Shown here one piece after another: positions 4,137 to 32,200 of a DNA stretch of 64,000 nt; within the stretch, counting starts at the first letter, position 1, and every line of letters begins with the position of its first letter. Source of the stretch: an uncultured Clostridia bacterium (GTDB lineage Bacteria > Bacillota > Clostridia > TANB77 > CAG-508). The stretch spans positions 39,207 to 103,206 of the forward strand of contig CAQIBN010000002.1 of the NCBI GenBank assembly GCA_948805675.1, read 5' to 3'. Made by a program: the position numbers and the translations under genes. The notes below the pieces were generated by a model. The model saw nothing but the letters and a program-made list of their open reading frames with translations. It was not told the origin of the DNA and did no database searches.

Positions 4137-4555
4137 AAATTCTTCTTCCTATGTATATATTTTTTATTATTTTTAATTTTCTATTTTATTGTGTATAGAC
4201 ATTTTAGACTTTATTTTTATTATAAATTAATTTTATTTCATCAAATTTATTCTAATTATTACATAATTACATATTATTTTGTAATAAAGTAGCTATTATT
4301 TGTCAACTCCACAATATATGTGTTACTTATATCTTTTTTATTAAAAAATATATGATTCTTTAATGAATACGCATATTTGCACATTATAATATTATATATT
4401 TGACATTAAAATTAAATGTTAAAAATGCACTCTTTATTTCTTTTTCTTAAATAAAGAAATAAATGCAAAAATAAAGAGTTAGTACAATTTCTATAAACAA
4501 CCCTTTATCTTTACATTTCTATTATAAAATATTTTACACTATTCTTTATTATACT

Positions 4556-5317
4556 TTAATTAATATCTTTCATCTTTGATTTTTTTATAATAAATATAAT
4601 CATTATTACTATGCAAATACATAAAACTAATAACCATATTGGATTTATACCAGTCTGTGGTAATTTACTTGTAGCAAGATTTTCATTTTGGTTATTTTTT
4701 GATTCTTCTATTTTATTTTCTTCAGAATTTGTTTTATTATTTTCTGTTTCTTGCTTTACTTTTACACCATTTGTAATATATCTATTATCACTTTTTATCT
4801 TTGCATATAATATTTGTGTAGAATCACTTTGAGTATCTATATATACAGCTCTCTTTTCTCTTACATTATCTTTAACTAAAAAACATAATTTTACTAAATC
4901 TACTTTATTATTATCTATAGCTTTTAACCTATTATTTTCCTCATTTCTTCCTAAGAAAACACATTCATTTTCATTAAACTGCATTTTCCAATTATTATTA
5001 TCATATAATTGTATGTAGCTTTGATTATTAAATACACCTTTTTCTCCTAAATCTAGTGTTTTATCTTTTAAATCTAGATATTCTAAATAAGTATTATCAT
5101 ATTCTATTTTACATTTAACACTAGATAATTCTCCTGCATAGGTCTTTGCTGATAATGTTATAACATAATAAAGTTTACCATCCTTTTCAACAAATCCATT
5201 ACTATTACTGGTATCATCAAATTGTAATTCACATGTTACAGCATACACTGTTTTACTAGAACATATAATAAATATTAATATACAAAACATAACACCTAAA
5301 ATACACCTTTTTCTCAT
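4556..5317 (-). CDS. sortase-anchored surface protein (LPQTG) with a cohesin-like domain
   Basis: Signal peptide MRKRCILGVMFCILIFIICSSKTVYA. C-terminal LPQTG + hydrophobic helix + KKSKMK tail. A roughly 140-aa domain with a cohesin-like pattern (VKCKIEYDNTYLEYL resembles the cohesin CDFVFxYDPNVLEII strand). Confidence 0.55.
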   Translation of the reverse strand: MRKRCILGVMFCILIFIICSSKTVYAVTCELQFDDTSNSNGFVEKDGKLYYVITLSAKTYAGELSSVKCKIEYDNTYLEYLDLKDKTLDLGEKGVFNNQSYIQLYDNNNWKMQFNENECVFLGRNEENNRLKAIDNNKVDLVKLCFLVKDNVREKRAVYIDTQSDSTQILYAKIKSDNRYITNGVKVKQETENNKTNSEENKIEESKNNQNENLATSKLPQTGINPIWLLVLCICIVIMIIFIIKKSKMKDIN

Positions 5318-5328
5318 TATATATATTC

Positions 5329-5886
5329 CTACCTTTTCTTTCCTTTTATAATTATAATAGTAATAATTGCTACTATAACAATTAGAGCAACTATATATAT
5401 TATATTAAATTTAGATTGCACACCTATATTTATGTACATATTTTTACTATCTTCCATATTAATTGTACTATCTATAATATTAACTGTCACTTTATCATTT
5501 ATTAATTTAACATTTTCCTTTACTTTCATTGAAATTTCTAATGTATTGTCACCTTTTGTTCCTTCTATTGTATTTAAAATTATGTCACCTTTTCTATTAA
5601 CAGTAGCTACATATACATTTTTACCTGCTGATATTTTGGCCAAATCTTTATAGGCTTCATTTTGTATAATTTCAATTTTATCTTCATTAAAATCTAATTT
5701 ACATTGTATAGTTGCATAATCTTCACTTAAATTAAATTTTAATCTTATTTTAAATTCTTCTCCTGGTTGGATTTTAGTTAAATCTTTATCTGTACTTACA
5801 TTAATAGAATTCGCACTACAACTACTATAAATTGAGAATAATATTAGAAATATAGTTATAGTTATTATAGTAATTCTCTTTTTCAT
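5329..5886 (-). CDS. secreted, membrane-anchored protein with a cohesin-like domain
   Basis: Signal peptide; one domain of about 135 aa (QPGEEFKIRLKF ... ATIQCKLDFNEDKIEII resembles cohesin type I KPGDTVNIPVRF ... ANCDFVFSYDPNVLEII); C-terminal TM helix + KGKKR. Confidence 0.5.
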   Translation of the reverse strand: MKKRITIITITIFLILFSIYSSCSANSINVSTDKDLTKIQPGEEFKIRLKFNLSEDYATIQCKLDFNEDKIEIIQNEAYKDLAKISAGKNVYVATVNRKGDIILNTIEGTKGDNTLEISMKVKENVKLINDKVTVNIIDSTINMEDSKNMYINIGVQSKFNIIYIVALIVIVAIITIIIIKGKKR

Positions 5887-5901
5887 ATTTATCTCCCTTT
5901 A

Positions 5902-8037
5902 TTATTGTTGTGGTATATTTGATATTAGCTCTGCAATATAGTTTATTAAAATTGCAGAATCTGCCAAATCTACTTTTCCATCCATATTTACATCTGCTGA
6001 ACATAGCTGTTCTTCTGTTAATGTTATTGATTCTTTATCTAAAAGATATTGATTTAGAAACACAAGGTCATTTATATTTACTTCACCATTATTATCTACA
6101 TCACCAAATATAGCAGTCATAGAATATTTATTTGCATTTTCAATCTGCTCATCTAATAATCCAGTTGTTGTTTCATCTAACCCTTTTAATGTTTTGGATA
6201 ATTTTACTGCATCAAAAACATCAATTTTTCCATTTCCATCTATATCTGCTTGTTCTAAGTCTATTTCTATTTTGTTATTTACTGTGTATTGTGCAATTAA
6301 ATTTGCATCATAAAAATCTATAATACCATCTTTATTAACATCACCTTTTTGTCCACTTCTTGGTACAATAAAGTAACTTTTTCCTAATAACTCTAAAGAT
6401 TCCCCTTGCAAATATGTATTTGTTTTACCATATTCATCTAATGCTTTAGAAAGTTTAATTGCATCAAAAACATCTACTTTTCCATCCTTATTTATATCTG
6501 AAGCATCGTTATTAATATTTATAGACTCATTTGTGGAATATTCTATTATCATTTTAACATCTGCATAATCTATAATACCATCTCCATTTACATCTCCAAC
6601 TGCATTTTTAAATGCTTTTATATAAGTAACTTTAGATGTATCTCCTGTATATAAAATATTGGTTAATGCTATTTGGTCATAGAAATTTACTATACCATCA
6701 CTATTTATATCTCCTTTTTTATCATTAGAATCTAACTCTGATATTTTAACAACATCATCTATATTTATAACACCATCATTATTTAAATCTGCAGTAGTAT
6801 CCTTAGGTGCCTTTATATATAATAAATAAATTGCATTTTCACTCTCTAATGCTTTATTTATGCATTCTACATCTTTTTTATCTACCTTACCATCACCATT
6901 TACATCTCCTTTTTCTATTGATATAGAAGATAATTTGCTATTTAACATTTCTGCATCTTTATAATTAATAATTTTATCCCCATTTATATCTCCATGTACA
7001 TTTGCAAGATTATTTTGATTTGATGGAATAATAAAATTAATATATTTTAGACTATTATTATTTATAGCTTCTTTTAATGCCTCTTTATCTTCTTTATCTA
7101 TTTTTCCATCACCATTTAAATCTGCAATAGTTTTATCTGTGCATTTTAATATTTCTTGAACATCAAGATTATCAATTCTTAAATCTTTATTTATATCTCC
7201 TCTTGAATTTTCTTTTACTAAAATAAAATTATCAACTTCTCCAAGTTTCTTATTTTTAATTTTAGATTCATAATCCATAGTTACTATTGTATTTTGCTTA
7301 TTAGAATTTATCTCTCCATCTTTTAATAATTCAATTATGATTTCTTTTCCTATATCTTTAATATTAGAAATAAGCATTTTATATGTTATTGAATCATTTG
7401 TTTGAGAATCATATTCTACTCTTCTAATACTATCTCCAATTTTTACTTTTAGTATTGGTGCTTGTATAACTTTTACTGGTTTATCAAATTTTATATTAAT
7501 ATAGTAAGCTCCACCTTTTTCAATCTTATATGTCACATTAGATGCTGTTATTGTAACTTTTTCTGGTGGCGATTCTGGCTGTTCATAATTTGTTTCGTAG
7601 TCTTCATAATATGGATTGTTTCCGCTTGTTTGAGTATATTCAGGTGATTTTATATTATTTTTTTTATTATTTTGAGAATCTGTAGCAACCTCTTTTATCT
7701 TATCAGTAAAAAAATAATATCTTTTATATATAGTTTTATCTTTATCATTTAGATTTCTTCCTGTAACCTCAACAACTCTTGTACATTCTGTTATAGTCTT
7801 TCTCTTCCCACCAATAGTCTTGTTGTACGTTTCATATTTACGAGTATGTGTTGAGTTAATACTTTTCCACATTATACCTGCCATATTGAAATCTTGTCTA
7901 AATTTTTGTTCCGCTTCTTTTATAATTTCACTATCTGTTTTCATTGCTTGTACATCATGAGCACATATAAGTACATTACATAGATTAAATAAAATTATAA
8001 AAGCTAATAAAAAAACTAATTTCTTCATATGTTTCAT
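5902..8037 (-). CDS. secreted protein with six tandem type I dockerin modules (N-terminal 270-aa domain of unknown function)
   Basis: Signal peptide. Twelve calcium-binding segments of the form GDVNGDGKVDKKDVECINKAL / DLNGDGKIDKEDKEALKEAI, arranged as 6 pairs across the C-terminal 440 aa. Confidence 0.8.
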   Translation of the reverse strand: MKHMKKLVFLLAFIILFNLCNVLICAHDVQAMKTDSEIIKEAEQKFRQDFNMAGIMWKSINSTHTRKYETYNKTIGGKRKTITECTRVVEVTGRNLNDKDKTIYKRYYFFTDKIKEVATDSQNNKKNNIKSPEYTQTSGNNPYYEDYETNYEQPESPPEKVTITASNVTYKIEKGGAYYINIKFDKPVKVIQAPILKVKIGDSIRRVEYDSQTNDSITYKMLISNIKDIGKEIIIELLKDGEINSNKQNTIVTMDYESKIKNKKLGEVDNFILVKENSRGDINKDLRIDNLDVQEILKCTDKTIADLNGDGKIDKEDKEALKEAINNNSLKYINFIIPSNQNNLANVHGDINGDKIINYKDAEMLNSKLSSISIEKGDVNGDGKVDKKDVECINKALESENAIYLLYIKAPKDTTADLNNDGVINIDDVVKISELDSNDKKGDINSDGIVNFYDQIALTNILYTGDTSKVTYIKAFKNAVGDVNGDGIIDYADVKMIIEYSTNESININNDASDINKDGKVDVFDAIKLSKALDEYGKTNTYLQGESLELLGKSYFIVPRSGQKGDVNKDGIIDFYDANLIAQYTVNNKIEIDLEQADIDGNGKIDVFDAVKLSKTLKGLDETTTGLLDEQIENANKYSMTAIFGDVDNNGEVNINDLVFLNQYLLDKESITLTEEQLCSADVNMDGKVDLADSAILINYIAELISNIPQQ

Positions 8038-8439
8038 TTCTCTTTTTCCCCCTTGTTTATAAATATATATTTAAAGAATCATACTAATGAAGAAATATGG
8101 CATATTTATATGTCTTTTTCAAATCATTTTGTAATATTATGACAAATATAATCATTTTTTTGTTAAAAATCTAATATACTTTTTTCTTCATTATATTTTT
8201 AACTTATCATAAACTGTAGAAATATAGTATATACATTTGCATTTTATATAATCATTTTGTAATGTAAAATTTTACCTAAAGAAATAGATTTTTTTTATTA
8301 AGAATTTTTCATTATGTATTTTATTCTAATATATGTGTTTAATGCCCAGAGGAATTTAACAAAATTTTCACTCTGAGCAGTTATTATAAAAAACTATATT
8401 ACCATTTCTATAAATTATTTATATCCTAATCTATTGTAG

Positions 8440-8880
8440 TACTTGTTCTTCCTGTTCCTACTACATCCTCTTGTAAAGATCTCCAAGTATTACATCCAAT
8501 AAAACCATCTGCTTGTAAACCTCTACTTCTTTGATAATTAATTGTAGCCTCTCTTGTTCTACTGCCAAATATTCCGGTCTAATCCTCCTGTTCTATATCC
8601 AAGTGTATTTAAATCATCTTGTGCTATTAATACATATGCTCCTTTTGAGCCTTGTGAAATTTGCGGATATCCTGCAAAGCCTTGACAAGCTGGAGTTCCT
8701 CTTCTTTTATCAAAGTGTACCCATGTTGGTGTTAGATATGCTGGTTCCACATAACTCCATACACCAGAATTTATTGCACTATTTCTTAAAGCATTTCTTC
8801 CGAGAATTTGTTAATCTTTGGCCTACATCAAAAGCCACTCCTGCATAATGTTGTGTTTGTGTACACACAGTTGAACATTT
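8440..8880 (-). pseudogene. remnant of a phage-type endolysin (peptidase M15 catalytic fragment + PG_binding_1 domain), multiply frameshifted and 5'-truncated
   Basis: Minus-strand frames give TQHYAGVAFDVG (SxHxxGxAxD zinc motif), WVHFD, and YQRSRGLQADGFIGCNTWRSLQ (peptidoglycan-binding repeat). Local GC is clearly higher than the surroundings. Confidence 0.55.
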
Positions 8881-8918: not shown

Positions 8919-10502
8919 TTATATTAATTTTTCTATATCTATTTTTAATTCAAATTTTGCTGATTTATCATGATAAATATAAATTTTATCAATTAGCATG
9001 TTTAATATTGCTTTATCTGGCTCATCAGTTTCTATAATTTGATTAAAATAGTCTATTGTTTGTTTTAATTTTTCTTGCTTTATTTCTAAATCTTCATTTT
9101 GTAATTCTTGCAATTTCTTCTTTACTTTTTCTATCTCTTTATATTTTTCTTCTTCTAAACTCTTATATGTATTTTCTATAAATATCCTTTTGCCTTCTAT
9201 GTTAGAAGCTATTTCTTTTATTCTTTGACTTACTAAAACTTTATATTCCGCTTCTAAATTTTTTAAATTTAATTTTATCTCTTCAAGATTTTTCTTTTTA
9301 GTTGATTTATATTCTTCTAGTTTCAAGTTTTCTATTTCTTCTATATAGTTATCTTTTAGTAGTATCAAAAAATTCTTAAAATTAGCAAGTAATATATCTT
9401 CTCTCACATTATGACATACACATCTTGACTTTCCATATTTTCTATAAGCAACACACTCATATAATTTTTTAGGAACATAATCTTCTTTTTTGCTACGAAC
9501 TCTTGCTACACCTGTAACACTTCCACCACATTCTCCACATCTTAAAAATCCACCAAATAGGTAATCTCTTTTTTTCTTTGTATACATACTTGAATTTTTC
9601 ACTCTTTTTTTCATCATTTCTTGAACTCTTTCAAATTGTTCTTTTGAGATAATTGCTTCATGATGATTTTCAAATATATATTGATCTTCTCTTTTTATTT
9701 TTTTGCCTTGCTTATGAATATCTTTTCTCTCAGTTTTATGAGTAATTGCAGTTCCTATGTATATTTCATCTTTTAGGATTCTCTTTATCATATAAATATC
9801 CCATAATTTCTTAACTGTTTTTTTATAACTTTTTCCTTTTTTACTTAACTCTCTTTCTATAACCTGTGATGGTGTTAAAAAATCATATTCGAAATTTAGC
9901 TTATGACATATTTTTCTCATTCCTAGACCTTGCTCGTATAAATTAAATATTGTTGTTATTGTATCTCTTACATTTTCATCAACTATTAACTCTCCTTTTT
10001 TAGCAGTTTTTAAATATCCAAATTTTGTACCTTGCAACAAGATTCCTTTTTCTAATTGCTTGTGCATACCTATTTTTACTTTTTTGGATACTTCTTTTAC
10101 ATATCTTTCATTAAACCATGTTGAAAGACCTAGTAAATCATCATCTCCTTCTAATAAATTAAATTCTCCAAAAGTATCTTTTGTTAGTATTAGATTTACA
10201 TTTTTCTCTTTTAAATCATCTATAAATGTAAGTGTTCTGCTACCTTTACGACCTATTCTTGATAAGTCTTTTGCCAAAATAATATCTACTTTTCCATCCT
10301 CAATGTCACCCAGCATTTTACTAAATTCTGGTCGCTCATCATTTGAAATATATCCTGATACATTATCATCAATATAATATTTAGATATATCCCAACCTTT
10401 GGAATCTGCATATTCTTTTGCTAATTCTACTTGAGCATCAATACTACTATATCTACTTTTGTTATCATCTTTACTTAACCTACAGTAACATACAACTTTC
10501 AA
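8919..10502 (-). CDS. large serine recombinase (resolvase/invertase-type catalytic domain + recombinase domain + zinc ribbon + coiled coil)
   Basis: 527 aa. N-terminal YCRLSKDD...IDAQ catalytic serine region, central recombinase domain, Cys cluster CGECGG...C..C, Lys/Glu-rich coiled-coil tail. Confidence 0.8.
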   Translation of the reverse strand: MKVVCYCRLSKDDNKSRYSSIDAQVELAKEYADSKGWDISKYYIDDNVSGYISNDERPEFSKMLGDIEDGKVDIILAKDLSRIGRKGSRTLTFIDDLKEKNVNLILTKDTFGEFNLLEGDDDLLGLSTWFNERYVKEVSKKVKIGMHKQLEKGILLQGTKFGYLKTAKKGELIVDENVRDTITTIFNLYEQGLGMRKICHKLNFEYDFLTPSQVIERELSKKGKSYKKTVKKLWDIYMIKRILKDEIYIGTAITHKTERKDIHKQGKKIKREDQYIFENHHEAIISKEQFERVQEMMKKRVKNSSMYTKKKRDYLFGGFLRCGECGGSVTGVARVRSKKEDYVPKKLYECVAYRKYGKSRCVCHNVREDILLANFKNFLILLKDNYIEEIENLKLEEYKSTKKKNLEEIKLNLKNLEAEYKVLVSQRIKEIASNIEGKRIFIENTYKSLEEEKYKEIEKVKKKLQELQNEDLEIKQEKLKQTIDYFNQIIETDEPDKAILNMLIDKIYIYHDKSAKFELKIDIEKLI

Positions 10503-10587
10503 TATATTTATCCTTTCCGAAGATAAATATATTTGTGCTTTTAGATTAGTTATATATTATCTTCTTTTTATGACAAATGCAATCTTT

Positions 10588-29260: not shown

Positions 29261-32200
29261 TTATTTTGCTACATTTACTGTTTCTTTTTCAGTTTTTCCT
29301 TCATCTTCTTGTGTATCTTCTGTGTCTTCTGTATTTATATGTGTATTTTTATAAACTTGCATACCTGTACCTGCTGGTATTAATTTACCTATAATTACAT
29401 TTTCTTTTAATCCAATTAAGTCATCTGTTTTTCCTTTAATAGCAGCTTCTGTAAGAACTCTTGTTGTTTCTTGGAAAGATGCTGCAGATAGGAAGCTTTC
29501 TGTTGCAAGAGATGCTTTTGTAATTCCAAGTAAAACTCTTTTTCCTGTTGCTGGTCTTAATCCTTCATTAATTACTCTATTATTTTCTTCTTCAAATTCA
29601 TACATATCAACTAATGAACCTGCAAACATATTTGTATCTCCATTATCTTCAACTCTTACCTTCTTAAGCATTTGTCTTGCAATAACTTCAACGTGTTTAT
29701 CATTAATATCAACACCTTGGTTACGATATACTTTTTGTACTTCTTGTACTAAATATTCAAATACTCCTTCTGGCCCCTTAATTGCTAAAATCTCATTTGG
29801 ATTTATTGAACCTTCTGTAATAGGGTCACCAGCCTTAACAATATCTCCATCTTTAACATGAAGTTTAGCTCCAAATGGTATAGTATATTTTTTAGCTTCT
29901 TGGTCTGAAATAATAGATACTTCTTTTCTTGATTTATCATCAGAGATTCTAACTGTACCATCTATTTCTGTTACTATTGCAAGTCCTTTTGGCTTTCTTG
30001 CTTCAAATAATTCTTCGACTCTTGGAAGACCTTGTGTAATATCTGCAACACCTGCAACACCACCAGAGTGAATAGTTCTCATTGTAAGCTGTGTACCAGG
30101 TTCACCTATTGATTGTGCAGCAATAATACCAACTGCTTCACCAATTTGTGCTTCTTCACGAGTAGCTAAGCCCATTCCATAACATTTTGCACATACACCA
30201 TGTTTTGTTCTACAACCTATAACAGAACGTACTTTTACTTTTTCTATTCCGTTACTTATTATTTCTTCAATTACTTTTTCTGTAAGCATTGTATTAGTAT
30301 CTGCTATTAACTCATTATTATTTGGATTAATAATATCTTCTAATGGGTATCTACCAATTAATCTTTCTTCTAATTTTTCAACTATTTGGTTTCCATCTTT
30401 TATATCCCATACTTCAATACCTTCATGTGTTCCACAATCATCTTCTTTTACAATTATATCTTGTGAAACATCAACTAATCTTCTTGTTAAATATCCAGAA
30501 TCGGCTGTTCTTAAAGCTGTATCTGAAAGTCCCTTTCTTGCACCATGTGCTGCGATAAAGTATTCTATTGCATCTAACCCTTCCCTAAAACATGATTTAA
30601 TAGGAATTTCTACAACTTTACCAGTTGTACTTGCCATAAGTCCACGCATACCTGCAATTTGTTTTAATTGGTCAAGGTTTCCGTCTTGCTCCAGACTCAG
30701 CCATCATATAAACTGGGTTTAGACTATCAAAGTTCTCTTTCATAGCTATTTTTACATCATCTGTTGCTTTACTCCAAATTTTAATAACAGCATTATATCT
30801 TTCATCATCTGTTATTAATCCACGTTTATATTGTTTTAATACTGTGTCTACTTGGCTTTGTGCTTCTGCTAAAATTGTCTTTTTAGCCTCTGGTACTTTA
30901 ACATCACTAACAGATACAGTAATAGCACCTATTGTAGAATATTTATAACCTGTTGACTTAATATAATCTAATAATTCAGCTGTTGCACTTAATCCATGAG
31001 CATTTATTGACTTTTCAATTATTTTTCCTAAATTCTTTTTAATTACTGGGAAATTAATTTCTAAATCAAATTCTTTTTCTTCATTTTGTCTATCTACAAA
31101 TCCTAAATCTTGTGGAATACCTTTATTAAACATAATTCTACCAACTGTTGTTTCAATTATTTTATGTTTTTCTATACCATTTACAATTTTAGACATTCTA
31201 ACTTTTATTCTAGCATGCATTCCTAAATCATGGTTTTCATATGCAATAACTGCTTCCTCTGGAGAACTAAAGTAATTACCTTCTCCTGGTTCTCCTTCAA
31301 CTTCCATTGTTAAATAATAACTTCCTAAAATCATATCTTGTGTTGGAACTGTAACTGGTTTACCATCTTGTGGTTTTAAAAGGTTATTTACAGATAGCAT
31401 TAAAAATCTTGCTTCTGCTTGTGCTTCTGGTGATAATGGTACGTGAATAGCCATTTGGTCACCATCAAAGTCTGCATTAAATGCTGTACAAACTAATGGA
31501 TGCAATTTTATTGCTCTACCCTCAACAAGTACTGGCTCAAATGCTTGAATACCTAGTCTATGAAGTGTTGGAGCACGGTTTAACATTACTGGATGGTCTT
31601 TAATAACATCTTCTAATATATCCCATACTTCTGGTCTTAATCTTTCTACCATTCTTTTTGCATTTTTAATATTATGAGCAATTCCACGACCTACTAATTC
31701 TTTCATTACAAATGGTTTAAATAATTCAACTGCCATTTCTTTTGGAAGTCCACATTGGTAAATTTTAAGTTCTGGACCTACAACGATAACTGAACGTCCT
31801 GAATAATCAACACGTTTACCAAGTAAGTTTTGTCTAAATCTACCTTGTTTTCCTTTTAACAAATCTGATAATGATTTTAAAGGTCTATTACCAGCTCCTG
31901 TAACTGGTCTTCCACGTCTTCCATTATCTATTAACGCATCTACAGATTCTTGTAACATTCTTTTTTCATTTCTTACAATAATCTCTGGTGCACCTAATTC
32001 TAATAATCTTTTTAAACGATTATTTCTGTTTATTACTCTTCTATATAAATCATTTAAATCTGATGTAGCAAATCTACCACCATCTAATTGTACCATTGGT
32101 CTTAGTTCTGGTGGAATTACTGGCACTACATTCATAATCATCCATTCAGGTCTATTATTAGATAATCTAAAAGATTCTACAGTATCTAATCTTTTTACTA

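Follow-up and report, generated by a model that had tools for sequence, protein, structure and literature searches.

The 64,000-nt stretch of DNA analyzed here (the window; positions 39,207 to 103,206 of contig CAQIBN010000002.1, assembly GCA_948805675.1, from an uncultured Clostridia bacterium) carries on its minus strand three co-directional, nearly abutting genes, running from 8037 to 4556, that probably constitute a self-contained, non-cellulosomal cohesin-dockerin surface system. The first, open reading frame (ORF) 1, encodes a 711-aa protein with six real type I-like dockerin modules; ORF2 begins 15 nt past its stop codon and ORF3 11 nt past that of ORF2, and both encode small anchored proteins that appear to bear one cohesin-type domain each. 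An original prediction, made from this DNA alone, had placed a secreted protein with 12 dockerin segments in six modules at positions 5902-7215. The range does correspond to residues 275-711 of the 711-aa ORF, and the three peptides quoted in support all occur in the ORF1 translation; the strand, however, had to be corrected, since the gene lies on the minus strand.

Dockerin modules of ORF1

Type I dockerins consist of a duplicated segment of ∼22 residues, in which a 12-residue EF-hand-like Ca2+-binding loop is followed by a helix. A search for such loops with the regular expression D-x-[DN]-x-[DN]-x-x-x-[DNT]-x-x-D returned exactly 12 sites in ORF1 (residues 281, 306, 350, 378, 417, 443, 482, 514, 566, 598, 646, and 682) and none in the remaining ∼41,500 residues of the six-frame ORFs of the window. 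All 12 loops have Asp or Asn at the canonical Ca2+-ligand positions (1, 3, 5, 9, and 12), and each is followed by a helix in the AlphaFold model. The Pfam profile Dockerin_1 (PF00404) matched ORF1 in six separate stretches with a score of 152.1 bits, against a gathering cut-off of 22.9 (E 4.4e-45), and a hidden Markov model (HMM) built from the six modules retrieved precisely those six and no further dockerin ORF anywhere in the window. Together, the loops, the Dockerin_1 score, and the module HMM thus make the six-dockerin observation real and far above chance, and the count of 12 segments and six modules in the original prediction was accurate.

The spacing between the two loops of a module is 25-28 aa in the compact modules 1-3 and 32-36 aa in modules 4-6. 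In the full-length AlphaFold model (mean predicted local distance difference test score, pLDDT, 70.8; ∼90 for dockerins 1-3 and ∼70-80 for dockerins 4-6), the modules adopt the three-helix dockerin fold and can be superposed on solved dockerins. They share 35-40% identity with dockerins whose binding to cohesins is proven, on which they superpose at ∼1 Å.

Many enzyme-borne dockerins owe their dual binding mode to internal symmetry of the recognition residues, which is not needed for membership of the dockerin family. Such two-fold symmetry (positions 10/11 and 17/18) is absent from ORF1: the pairs are unlike between the two halves in six of six modules, with positions 10/11 reading NL/KE, YK/KK, ID/FY, YA/VF, FY/VF, and IN/LA in modules 1-6. 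The 10/11 signatures also differ from module to module, and many are retained in orthologues. As these residues differ both between halves and between modules, the ORF1 dockerins are predicted, from established dockerin knowledge, to bind in one mode each, not in two, and to have specificities that are not equivalent. No catalytic Pfam domain and no protease domain was found in ORF1, which therefore fits the definition of a polydockerin given in two reports, i.e., at least three tandem, non-identical dockerins and no recognizable catalytic module (PMC4081043; PMC7260996).

Age of the six-module array

Ten ORF1 homologs of 689-812 aa keep the entire layout in register (34-45% identity by MAFFT; 36-48% by BLASTP). 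Across orthologues, modules at the same position are 60, 51, 56, 44, 45, and 47% identical (modules 1-6, respectively), compared with ∼40% for modules at other positions; the six-module array is therefore old, and its positions are individually constrained. This positional identity, taken with the differing 10/11 residues, argues for non-redundant binding roles. Within ORF1, the modules share 31-56% identity as protein and 60-75% as DNA, modules 4 and 5 (56%) being the sole pair that resemble each other. An independent metagenome assembly contains a 711-aa protein 99% identical to ORF1, and other contigs on record carry further cluster members, equal in length and at least 90% identical. Although other genes in the window do contain sequence defects (frameshifts in rpoB, rpoC, and a penicillin-binding protein (PBP) gene, and a nonsense codon in an ABC transporter gene), the proposal that the tandem modules arose by misassembly or repeat expansion is refuted by the low identity between copies, the independent 99% copy and the same-length cluster members, and the in-register orthologues, and its probability is negligible. 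The ORF1-ORF2-ORF3 cassette itself shows none of these indel or nonsense defects.

Two local departures from the layout were observed among orthologues. The second repeat of module 6 is absent in three 704-aa proteins (P0004, P0010, and P0012; L001, 10001-12115), which end in …PLTEARVESC; this naturally truncated, single-repeat sixth dockerin recalls the group 2 dockerins of Ruminococcus flavefaciens as they are described in a passage of PMC12270676. Segments 3 and 5 (reference residues 350 and 417) have insertions within the Ca2+ loop in several orthologues (e.g., DVDDGSGKGNPDGVINYHD and DIYTTQDEKGVINAKD), at positions where the window protein has the canonical 12 residues.

The N-terminal region of ORF1

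ORF1 was expected to be secreted, and inspection supports this: residues 1-31 have the features of a signal peptide, with a helix at residues 3-20 in the AlphaFold model. The N-terminal region had been described as an unknown domain of 270 aa. This was only partly upheld, as the head indeed has no Pfam or PDB match, whereas residues ∼158-275 form an immunoglobulin (Ig)-like beta-sandwich; neither part of the N-terminal 252 aa matched a Pfam family or a PDB sequence. The head is poorly conserved among orthologues, and the linker behind it differs in length, being expanded in orthologue P0015 by 16-residue SIGEPPLPDTTTE(A/T)TK repeats. In an exhaustive search, the well-conserved Ig-like domain matched repeated domains (up to 22 stretches) in giant proteins of 2-6.7 kaa, of which the further Pfam matches are Big_7, Big_10, and Cadherin, while no other N-terminal part found relatives. 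From these repeated relatives, the Ig-like domain is a stalk-type module of surface proteins.

The anchored neighbors ORF2 and ORF3

Both genes downstream of ORF1 had been called cohesin-like, and the designation has held up. For ORF3, structure prediction and a fold search gave a nine-stranded beta jelly-roll cohesin fold; Pfam Cohesin matched two of five orthologues (best E 0.0029) and not the window protein, and on the strength of the model we take ORF3 to be a cohesin. For ORF2, profile comparisons make a divergent cohesin very probable. Pfam Cohesin (PF00963) matches five of its seven orthologues (best E 2.6e-6), a precomputed PF00963 match is present in eight of the 12 clusters of the family, and the best PDB match of the extended family profile is the cohesin 5g5d (E 0.0017). 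When trimmed to their domains, the ORF2 and ORF3 families aligned in hhalign over 102 columns (probability 74%, E 2.9e-5), and they have in common the motifs K(L/I)(D/E)(F/Y)(N/D)...(I/L)E and (K/L)VK(E/D)NV. This cohesin signal emerged after distant members were included, domains trimmed, and folds predicted; untrimmed, the two families aligned by their transmembrane (TM) helices alone, and shallow profiles of seven ORF2 and five ORF3 sequences gave no cohesin match against PDB sequences.

ORF3 also matches NCBIfam LPXTG models. Surface anchoring of the cellulosome type, by S-layer homology (SLH) domains or by sortase, is represented here by the LPQTG motif, TM helix, and basic tail of ORF3 together with the sortase genes in the window (Table 1). 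HMMs of the ORF2 and ORF3 families found no second copy of either gene in the window. Downstream of ORF3, an AT-rich hairpin is a plausible operon terminator. A consensus scan of this 25% guanine-plus-cytosine (G+C) DNA was uninformative, with 36 promoter-like sites against 44 expected and no terminators; the terminator consensus is G+C-biased and passed over the hairpin.

Table 1. Features of the polydockerin cassette and associated genes, in window coordinates (iE, independent E-value with the HMM of the six ORF1 modules).
Feature	Position	Strand	Description
ORF1, polydockerin gene	5902..8037	-	Single ORF, 711 aa: signal peptide, variable head, linker, Ig-like domain, six dockerins
Signal peptide	7945..8037	-	aa 1-31 (MKHMKKLVFLLAFIILFNLCNVLICAHDVQA); by inspection: basic N-region, hydrophobic core, VQA cleavage-type motif
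Variable N-terminal head	7684..7944	-	aa ∼32-118; helix and three long strands; low-confidence model, pLDDT 53-72
Disordered linker	7567..7683	-	aa ∼119-157; Asn/Glu/Pro/Tyr-rich; pLDDT <50 for residues 120-155
Ig-like beta-sandwich domain	7213..7566	-	aa ∼158-275; pLDDT 84-88; well conserved
Dockerin module 1	7048..7200	-	aa 280-330; loops 281/306, compact; iE 5e-17; pLDDT ∼90
Dockerin module 2	6832..6993	-	aa 349-402; loops 350/378, compact; iE 3.5e-22
Dockerin module 3	6637..6792	-	aa 416-467; loops 417/443, compact; iE 2e-18
Dockerin module 4	6424..6597	-	aa 481-538; loops 482/514; iE 7e-25
Dockerin module 5	6172..6345	-	aa 565-622; loops 566/598; iE 2e-24
Dockerin module 6	5920..6105	-	aa 645-706; loops 646/682; iE 2.5e-22; best Pfam stretch 645-701
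ORF2	5329..5886	-	185 aa; signal peptide, single divergent cohesin-like domain (∼26-158, ∼133 aa), C-terminal TM helix, KGKKR tail
ORF3	4556..5317	-	253 aa; signal peptide, single cohesin domain (∼28-182; accepted from the model), low-complexity stalk, LPQTG, TM helix, basic tail
Candidate operon terminator	4429..4479	-	AT-rich hairpin and U-run, ∼80 nt after ORF3; RNA fold -13 kcal/mol, z = -2.3 vs. shuffles; weak
Sortase gene	14820..15527	-	Pfam Sortase, E 9e-28 (also reported as 8.8e-28); candidate enzyme for ORF3 anchoring
Second sortase gene	37549-38271		Pfam Sortase

Synteny and distribution of the cassette

Related loci (designated L001, L081, and so on) were compared with the window. 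All nine polydockerin gene copies, from eight distinct loci (window/L003, L001/L002, L081, L082 with two copies, L083, L084, L087/L088, and L089), have a member of the ORF2 and/or ORF3 family directly downstream. The three families are small and co-distributed, comprising 18, 12, and 7 clusters (ORF1, ORF2, and ORF3, respectively) among 5.8 billion proteins. Flanking genes are unrelated between loci, including pyrimidine genes and genes for isoleucyl-tRNA synthetase (IleRS), glycogen phosphorylase, acetyl-CoA carboxylase, and acetate kinase, with a serine recombinase and an insertion sequence (IS) element in the window; because of these differences, the cassette may move as a unit. Neither a megablast search of window positions 4400-8300 against plasmids and phages nor a PHROGs search with the three genes gave a match, so that the cassette is not among the known cargoes of plasmids or phages. 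When an alignment of ORF1 orthologues was scanned across genome contigs, the matches listed were unrelated dockerin proteins sharing the generic dockerin pattern.

The cassette-bearing contigs have 25-27% G+C, and most of the samples are gut metagenomes by their record names. At NCBI, ORF2 is identical to MCI8486087.1, and MCI8486088.1 and MCI8486086.1 are cluster members (at least 90%) of ORF1 and ORF3; all three belong to a "Clostridia bacterium" metagenome-assembled genome (MAG) and are annotated as "hypothetical protein." A sortase gene lies close to the cassette in L083.

Several loci carry additional dockerin genes. In L082 (2020-12927), the cassette is tandemly duplicated, encoding polydockerins of 739 and 812 aa, each with its own cohesin gene. 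This region and L081 (11017-12711) also encode extra dockerin proteins, one of 564 aa with six Dockerin_1 stretches and two of 529 and 517 aa with two stretches each, in none of which a catalytic Pfam domain was found. A second polydockerin family occurs on two 25% G+C contigs from ENA metagenome assemblies (L085, 5001-7768; L086, 5001-8228); its members, of 718 and 871 aa, have an N-terminal membrane anchor and approximately nine dockerin-like modules, and are directly followed by a 199-aa protein with the layout of ORF2 (signal peptide and C-terminal TM helix) and then by paralogous small membrane proteins. No cohesin signature was detected in the 199-aa protein; the family may be a parallel system.

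Proposed working of the cassette and alternative explanations

In the proposed system, ORF1 would be exported by Sec and would fold, with as many as 12 Ca2+ ions bound, into a variable head, an Ig-like stalk, and, behind these, six non-equivalent type I-like dockerins. Sortase would join ORF3, with one cohesin on a short stalk, covalently to peptidoglycan through LPQTG, and the single cohesin of ORF2 would be kept at the membrane by the C-terminal helix. If the dockerins bind both cohesins, presumably through Ca2+-dependent contacts, then one ORF1 would be held by several anchors at once, with the avidity that this implies, and could cross-link wall-bound and membrane-bound anchors, so that the Ig-like domain and the head would stay exposed and form a surface or adhesion structure without enzymatic function. 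Such an arrangement would be an inverted scaffoldin, in which the dockerin is repeated and the anchors are monovalent. Points in its favor are the cohesin-likeness of ORF2, the anchors of ORF2 and ORF3, the two sortases in the window, the short intergenic gaps, the synteny, the small, co-distributed families, and the positional identity of the modules; from these domain identities, anchoring signals, operon-like packing, and synteny we infer binding of the dockerins to ORF2 and ORF3, its stoichiometry and calcium dependence, and the function of the head. The role originally predicted, that of a multivalent adaptor or cross-linker acting on surface proteins with cohesins, is still the most economical reading and gains strength from the three-gene synteny.

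Several observations weigh against this reading. In L089, ORF3 alone follows the polydockerin gene, and in L084, the gene after ORF2, at the position of ORF3, is a short ORF of 132 aa; a complete pair of anchors is thus not strictly required. The window ORF2 itself has no Pfam Cohesin match at E ≤ 10, and the ORF2 and ORF3 profiles and models were built from shallow alignments of 8-13 sequences. Six dockerins facing two cohesin types leave room for partners encoded beyond the visible 64 kb. Finally, a membrane-flush ORF2 cohesin would lie beneath the wall, which is awkward for purely outward display. A more specific version would have the hexavalent dockerin protein cross-link membrane (ORF2) and peptidoglycan (ORF3) anchors, as a membrane-wall tether or as a Ca2+-dependent lattice presenting a variable adhesin head, with no role in polysaccharide degradation; we propose this tentatively and regard it as possible but doubtful.

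Among the alternatives, released ORF1 could instead act as an intercellular glue that bridges the cohesins of ORF3 and ORF2 between separate cells, whether of one species or of related ones, causing auto-aggregation or biofilm formation rather than display of the head. Six non-identical modules and monovalent, cell-anchored cohesins would suit this role equally, ORF1 itself has no anchor motif, and cross-species cohesin-dockerin binding is known (PMC12484212, in its section 3.3). Nothing in the data separates binding in cis from binding in trans, however, and the conserved Ig-like domain and variable head would be left without a role; we consider the explanation unlikely.

Alternatively, ORF1 could be a connector within a true polysaccharide-degrading cellulosome or amylosome, linking scaffoldins in a system that has the genes for its enzymes and multi-cohesin scaffoldins at other places in the genome. 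The polydockerins reported so far (PMC4081043; PMC7260996) stem from fiber degraders and rumen samples, the inspection covered 64 kb of the genome, and some relatives have the extra dockerin proteins beside the cassette mentioned above. Those proteins, however, show no catalytic Pfam domain, and the sole conserved partners of ORF1 are single-cohesin anchors. In agreement with the original prediction, no glycoside hydrolase was found around ORF1: neither glycoside hydrolases nor carbohydrate-binding modules were present among the ∼30 larger window ORFs scanned against Pfam or among the listed flanking genes of related loci, and family HMMs found no other dockerin or cohesin-family ORF anywhere in the window. 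A connector role seems quite improbable.

The modules could also serve a cohesin-independent role, as a Ca2+-binding structural or matrix repeat (cf. EF-hand or thrombospondin-type repeats) or as binders of a non-protein ligand, with the neighbors being unrelated beta-sandwich surface proteins. Dockerin-like repeats are widespread outside cellulosomes, including in bacteria of the candidate phyla radiation (CPR) and in archaea among the matches listed; several double dockerins bound no cohesin when tested, according to a passage of PMC5590126; and the L085/L086 polydockerins are followed by the small secreted TM protein in which a cohesin signature was not detected. Nevertheless, cohesin-fold genes lie directly downstream in every ORF1-family locus examined, for which chance is hard to invoke, and the modules closely resemble cohesin-binding dockerins in sequence and predicted structure. 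We give this explanation very little weight.

Comparison with known cohesin-dockerin systems

The original prediction implied that a polydockerin was without precedent, which proved incorrect. Two dockerins per polypeptide are called "rare" in a passage of PMC4217186, and longer arrays are described in passages of three further sources: seven tandem, non-identical dockerins in R. flavefaciens 007c and 17 (EWM52407, WP_019680459; PMC4081043), polydockerins with up to 13 modules, "function ... unknown," in a bovine rumen gene catalog (PMC7260996), and, in a 2025 review (PMC12484212) that cites Chen et al. 2024 and Dassa et al. 2014, triple and septuple dockerins as well as a "sextuple" one noted for an Oscillospiraceae MAG. 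The polydockerin architecture itself is therefore already known; the conserved partner operon in a gut Clostridia lineage without glycoside hydrolases nearby is new. In the literature searched, we found no description of a polydockerin that shares a conserved operon with two single-cohesin proteins of different anchoring, in surroundings without carbohydrate-active enzymes (CAZymes).

ORF1 and the reported polydockerins are alike in having tandem, non-identical dockerins and no catalytic module (as described in parts of PMC4081043, PMC7260996, and PMC12484212). The latter, however, come from fiber-degrading or rumen settings with elaborate scaffoldins, and the passages on them name no dedicated partner operon, whereas ORF1 is part of a conserved three-gene cassette with two single-cohesin anchors, has an Ig-like domain and head, and has no CAZymes nearby; this distinction is drawn from the published descriptions. 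The only case to have been studied structurally, according to the review, is that of the Clostridium thermocellum S8 protease Clo1313_0689, with its double dockerin dDoc_0689 (PDB 8x39; Chen et al. 2024, via PMC12484212), which was suggested to tether the protease to a cell-bound cohesin. The double dockerin has two modules fused to a protease, compared with six and no protease domain in ORF1; 85 residues superpose at 4.7 Å, and the packing between modules is not clearly shared.

With respect to anchoring scaffoldins of cellulosomes (OlpA, OlpC, and SdbA of C. thermocellum and the sortase-anchored ScaE of R. flavefaciens), valency is inverted here, the ligand having six dockerins. Classical cellulosomes are built on a scaffoldin with many cohesins, whereas the cassette encodes monovalent anchors, including a second cohesin (ORF2) that is anchored by a membrane helix, and, to the extent of the window, no enzymes take part; ORF2 and ORF3 have one domain each, and neither a multi-cohesin scaffoldin nor enzyme-borne dockerins occur within the window. 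Non-cellulosomal systems, such as the NagH/NagJ toxin complexes of Clostridium perfringens, the cohesin of Archaeoglobus fulgidus, and the minimal pair ClcC/ClcD of Cellulosilyticum lentocellum, are 1:1 pairs attached to enzymes, compared with a potential 6:n arrangement and no enzyme here.

Polydockerins have thus been noticed repeatedly in R. flavefaciens, rumen catalogs, and the 2025 review, and the small conserved operon described here names likely partners, making the question of their function directly testable as six dockerins against two cohesins. The cassette suggests that cohesin-dockerin pairs in human-gut Firmicutes also serve cell-surface architecture or adhesion, beyond enzyme assembly. 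If the inverted scaffolding device is true, it would provide a first functional rationale for polydockerins and a new use of cohesin-dockerin pairing in the organization of the cell envelope of gut Clostridia. For the design of protein assemblies, a set of six dockerins that diverge from one another, together with two cognate cohesins, would moreover offer useful orthogonal parts.

Genomic surroundings

The window is chromosomal, with rpoB, rpoC, dnaB, ftsH, spoIIE, and PBP genes and a G+C content of ∼25%. Clostridium sp. CAG:571 is among the members of the 90% cluster of FtsH. A 3,673-aa surface protein (44406-55427) with SpaA, MucBP, GLUG, and Big domains and an MPKTG sortase signal is encoded near a WG-repeat protein (42440-43957) and the two sortases; no dockerin or cohesin was found in any of these proteins, which together point to a rich set of surface proteins that depend on sortase. 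Immediately upstream of the cassette, positions 8919-14295 hold mobile-element genes, namely those for a large serine recombinase (phrog_95 integrase, E 1.7e-92), a transposase of the IS3 type (rve), a GNAT acetyltransferase, and a Bro-N protein. Upstream of ORF1, a gap of 880 nt contains on the minus strand (8440-8850) a frameshifted gene remnant with a peptidoglycan-binding-type repeat (…YVLIAQDDLNTLGYRTGGLD… / …GLQADGFIGCNTWRSLQ…), identified by eye in translation.

Broken genes occur elsewhere in the window at 29261-32819, 33347-37079, 16962-19197, and 452-2200. The fragments of rpoC (715 + 462 aa), rpoB (1003 + 255 aa), and a PBP gene (418 + 332 aa) are in different frames, and an ABC transporter gene is cut by a single AAA-to-TAA change relative to an intact 588-aa copy in L003. 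That essential genes are broken points to indel or base errors of assembly, or to a decaying strain; an altered genetic code was rejected as the cause, as the rpoB, rpoC, and PBP fragments are frame-shifted and the ABC transporter break is one AAA-to-TAA change. In the independent assembly L003 (1241-2120), a gene for an rRNA adenine dimethylase (ksgA-type, RrnaAD) is apparently split into 114 + 156 aa; in the window, the scanned ORF at 15916-16413 encodes a C-terminal part of 165 aa that matches profile positions 107-257. If the split is present in both assemblies, it is more likely a feature of the lineage than a sequencing error.

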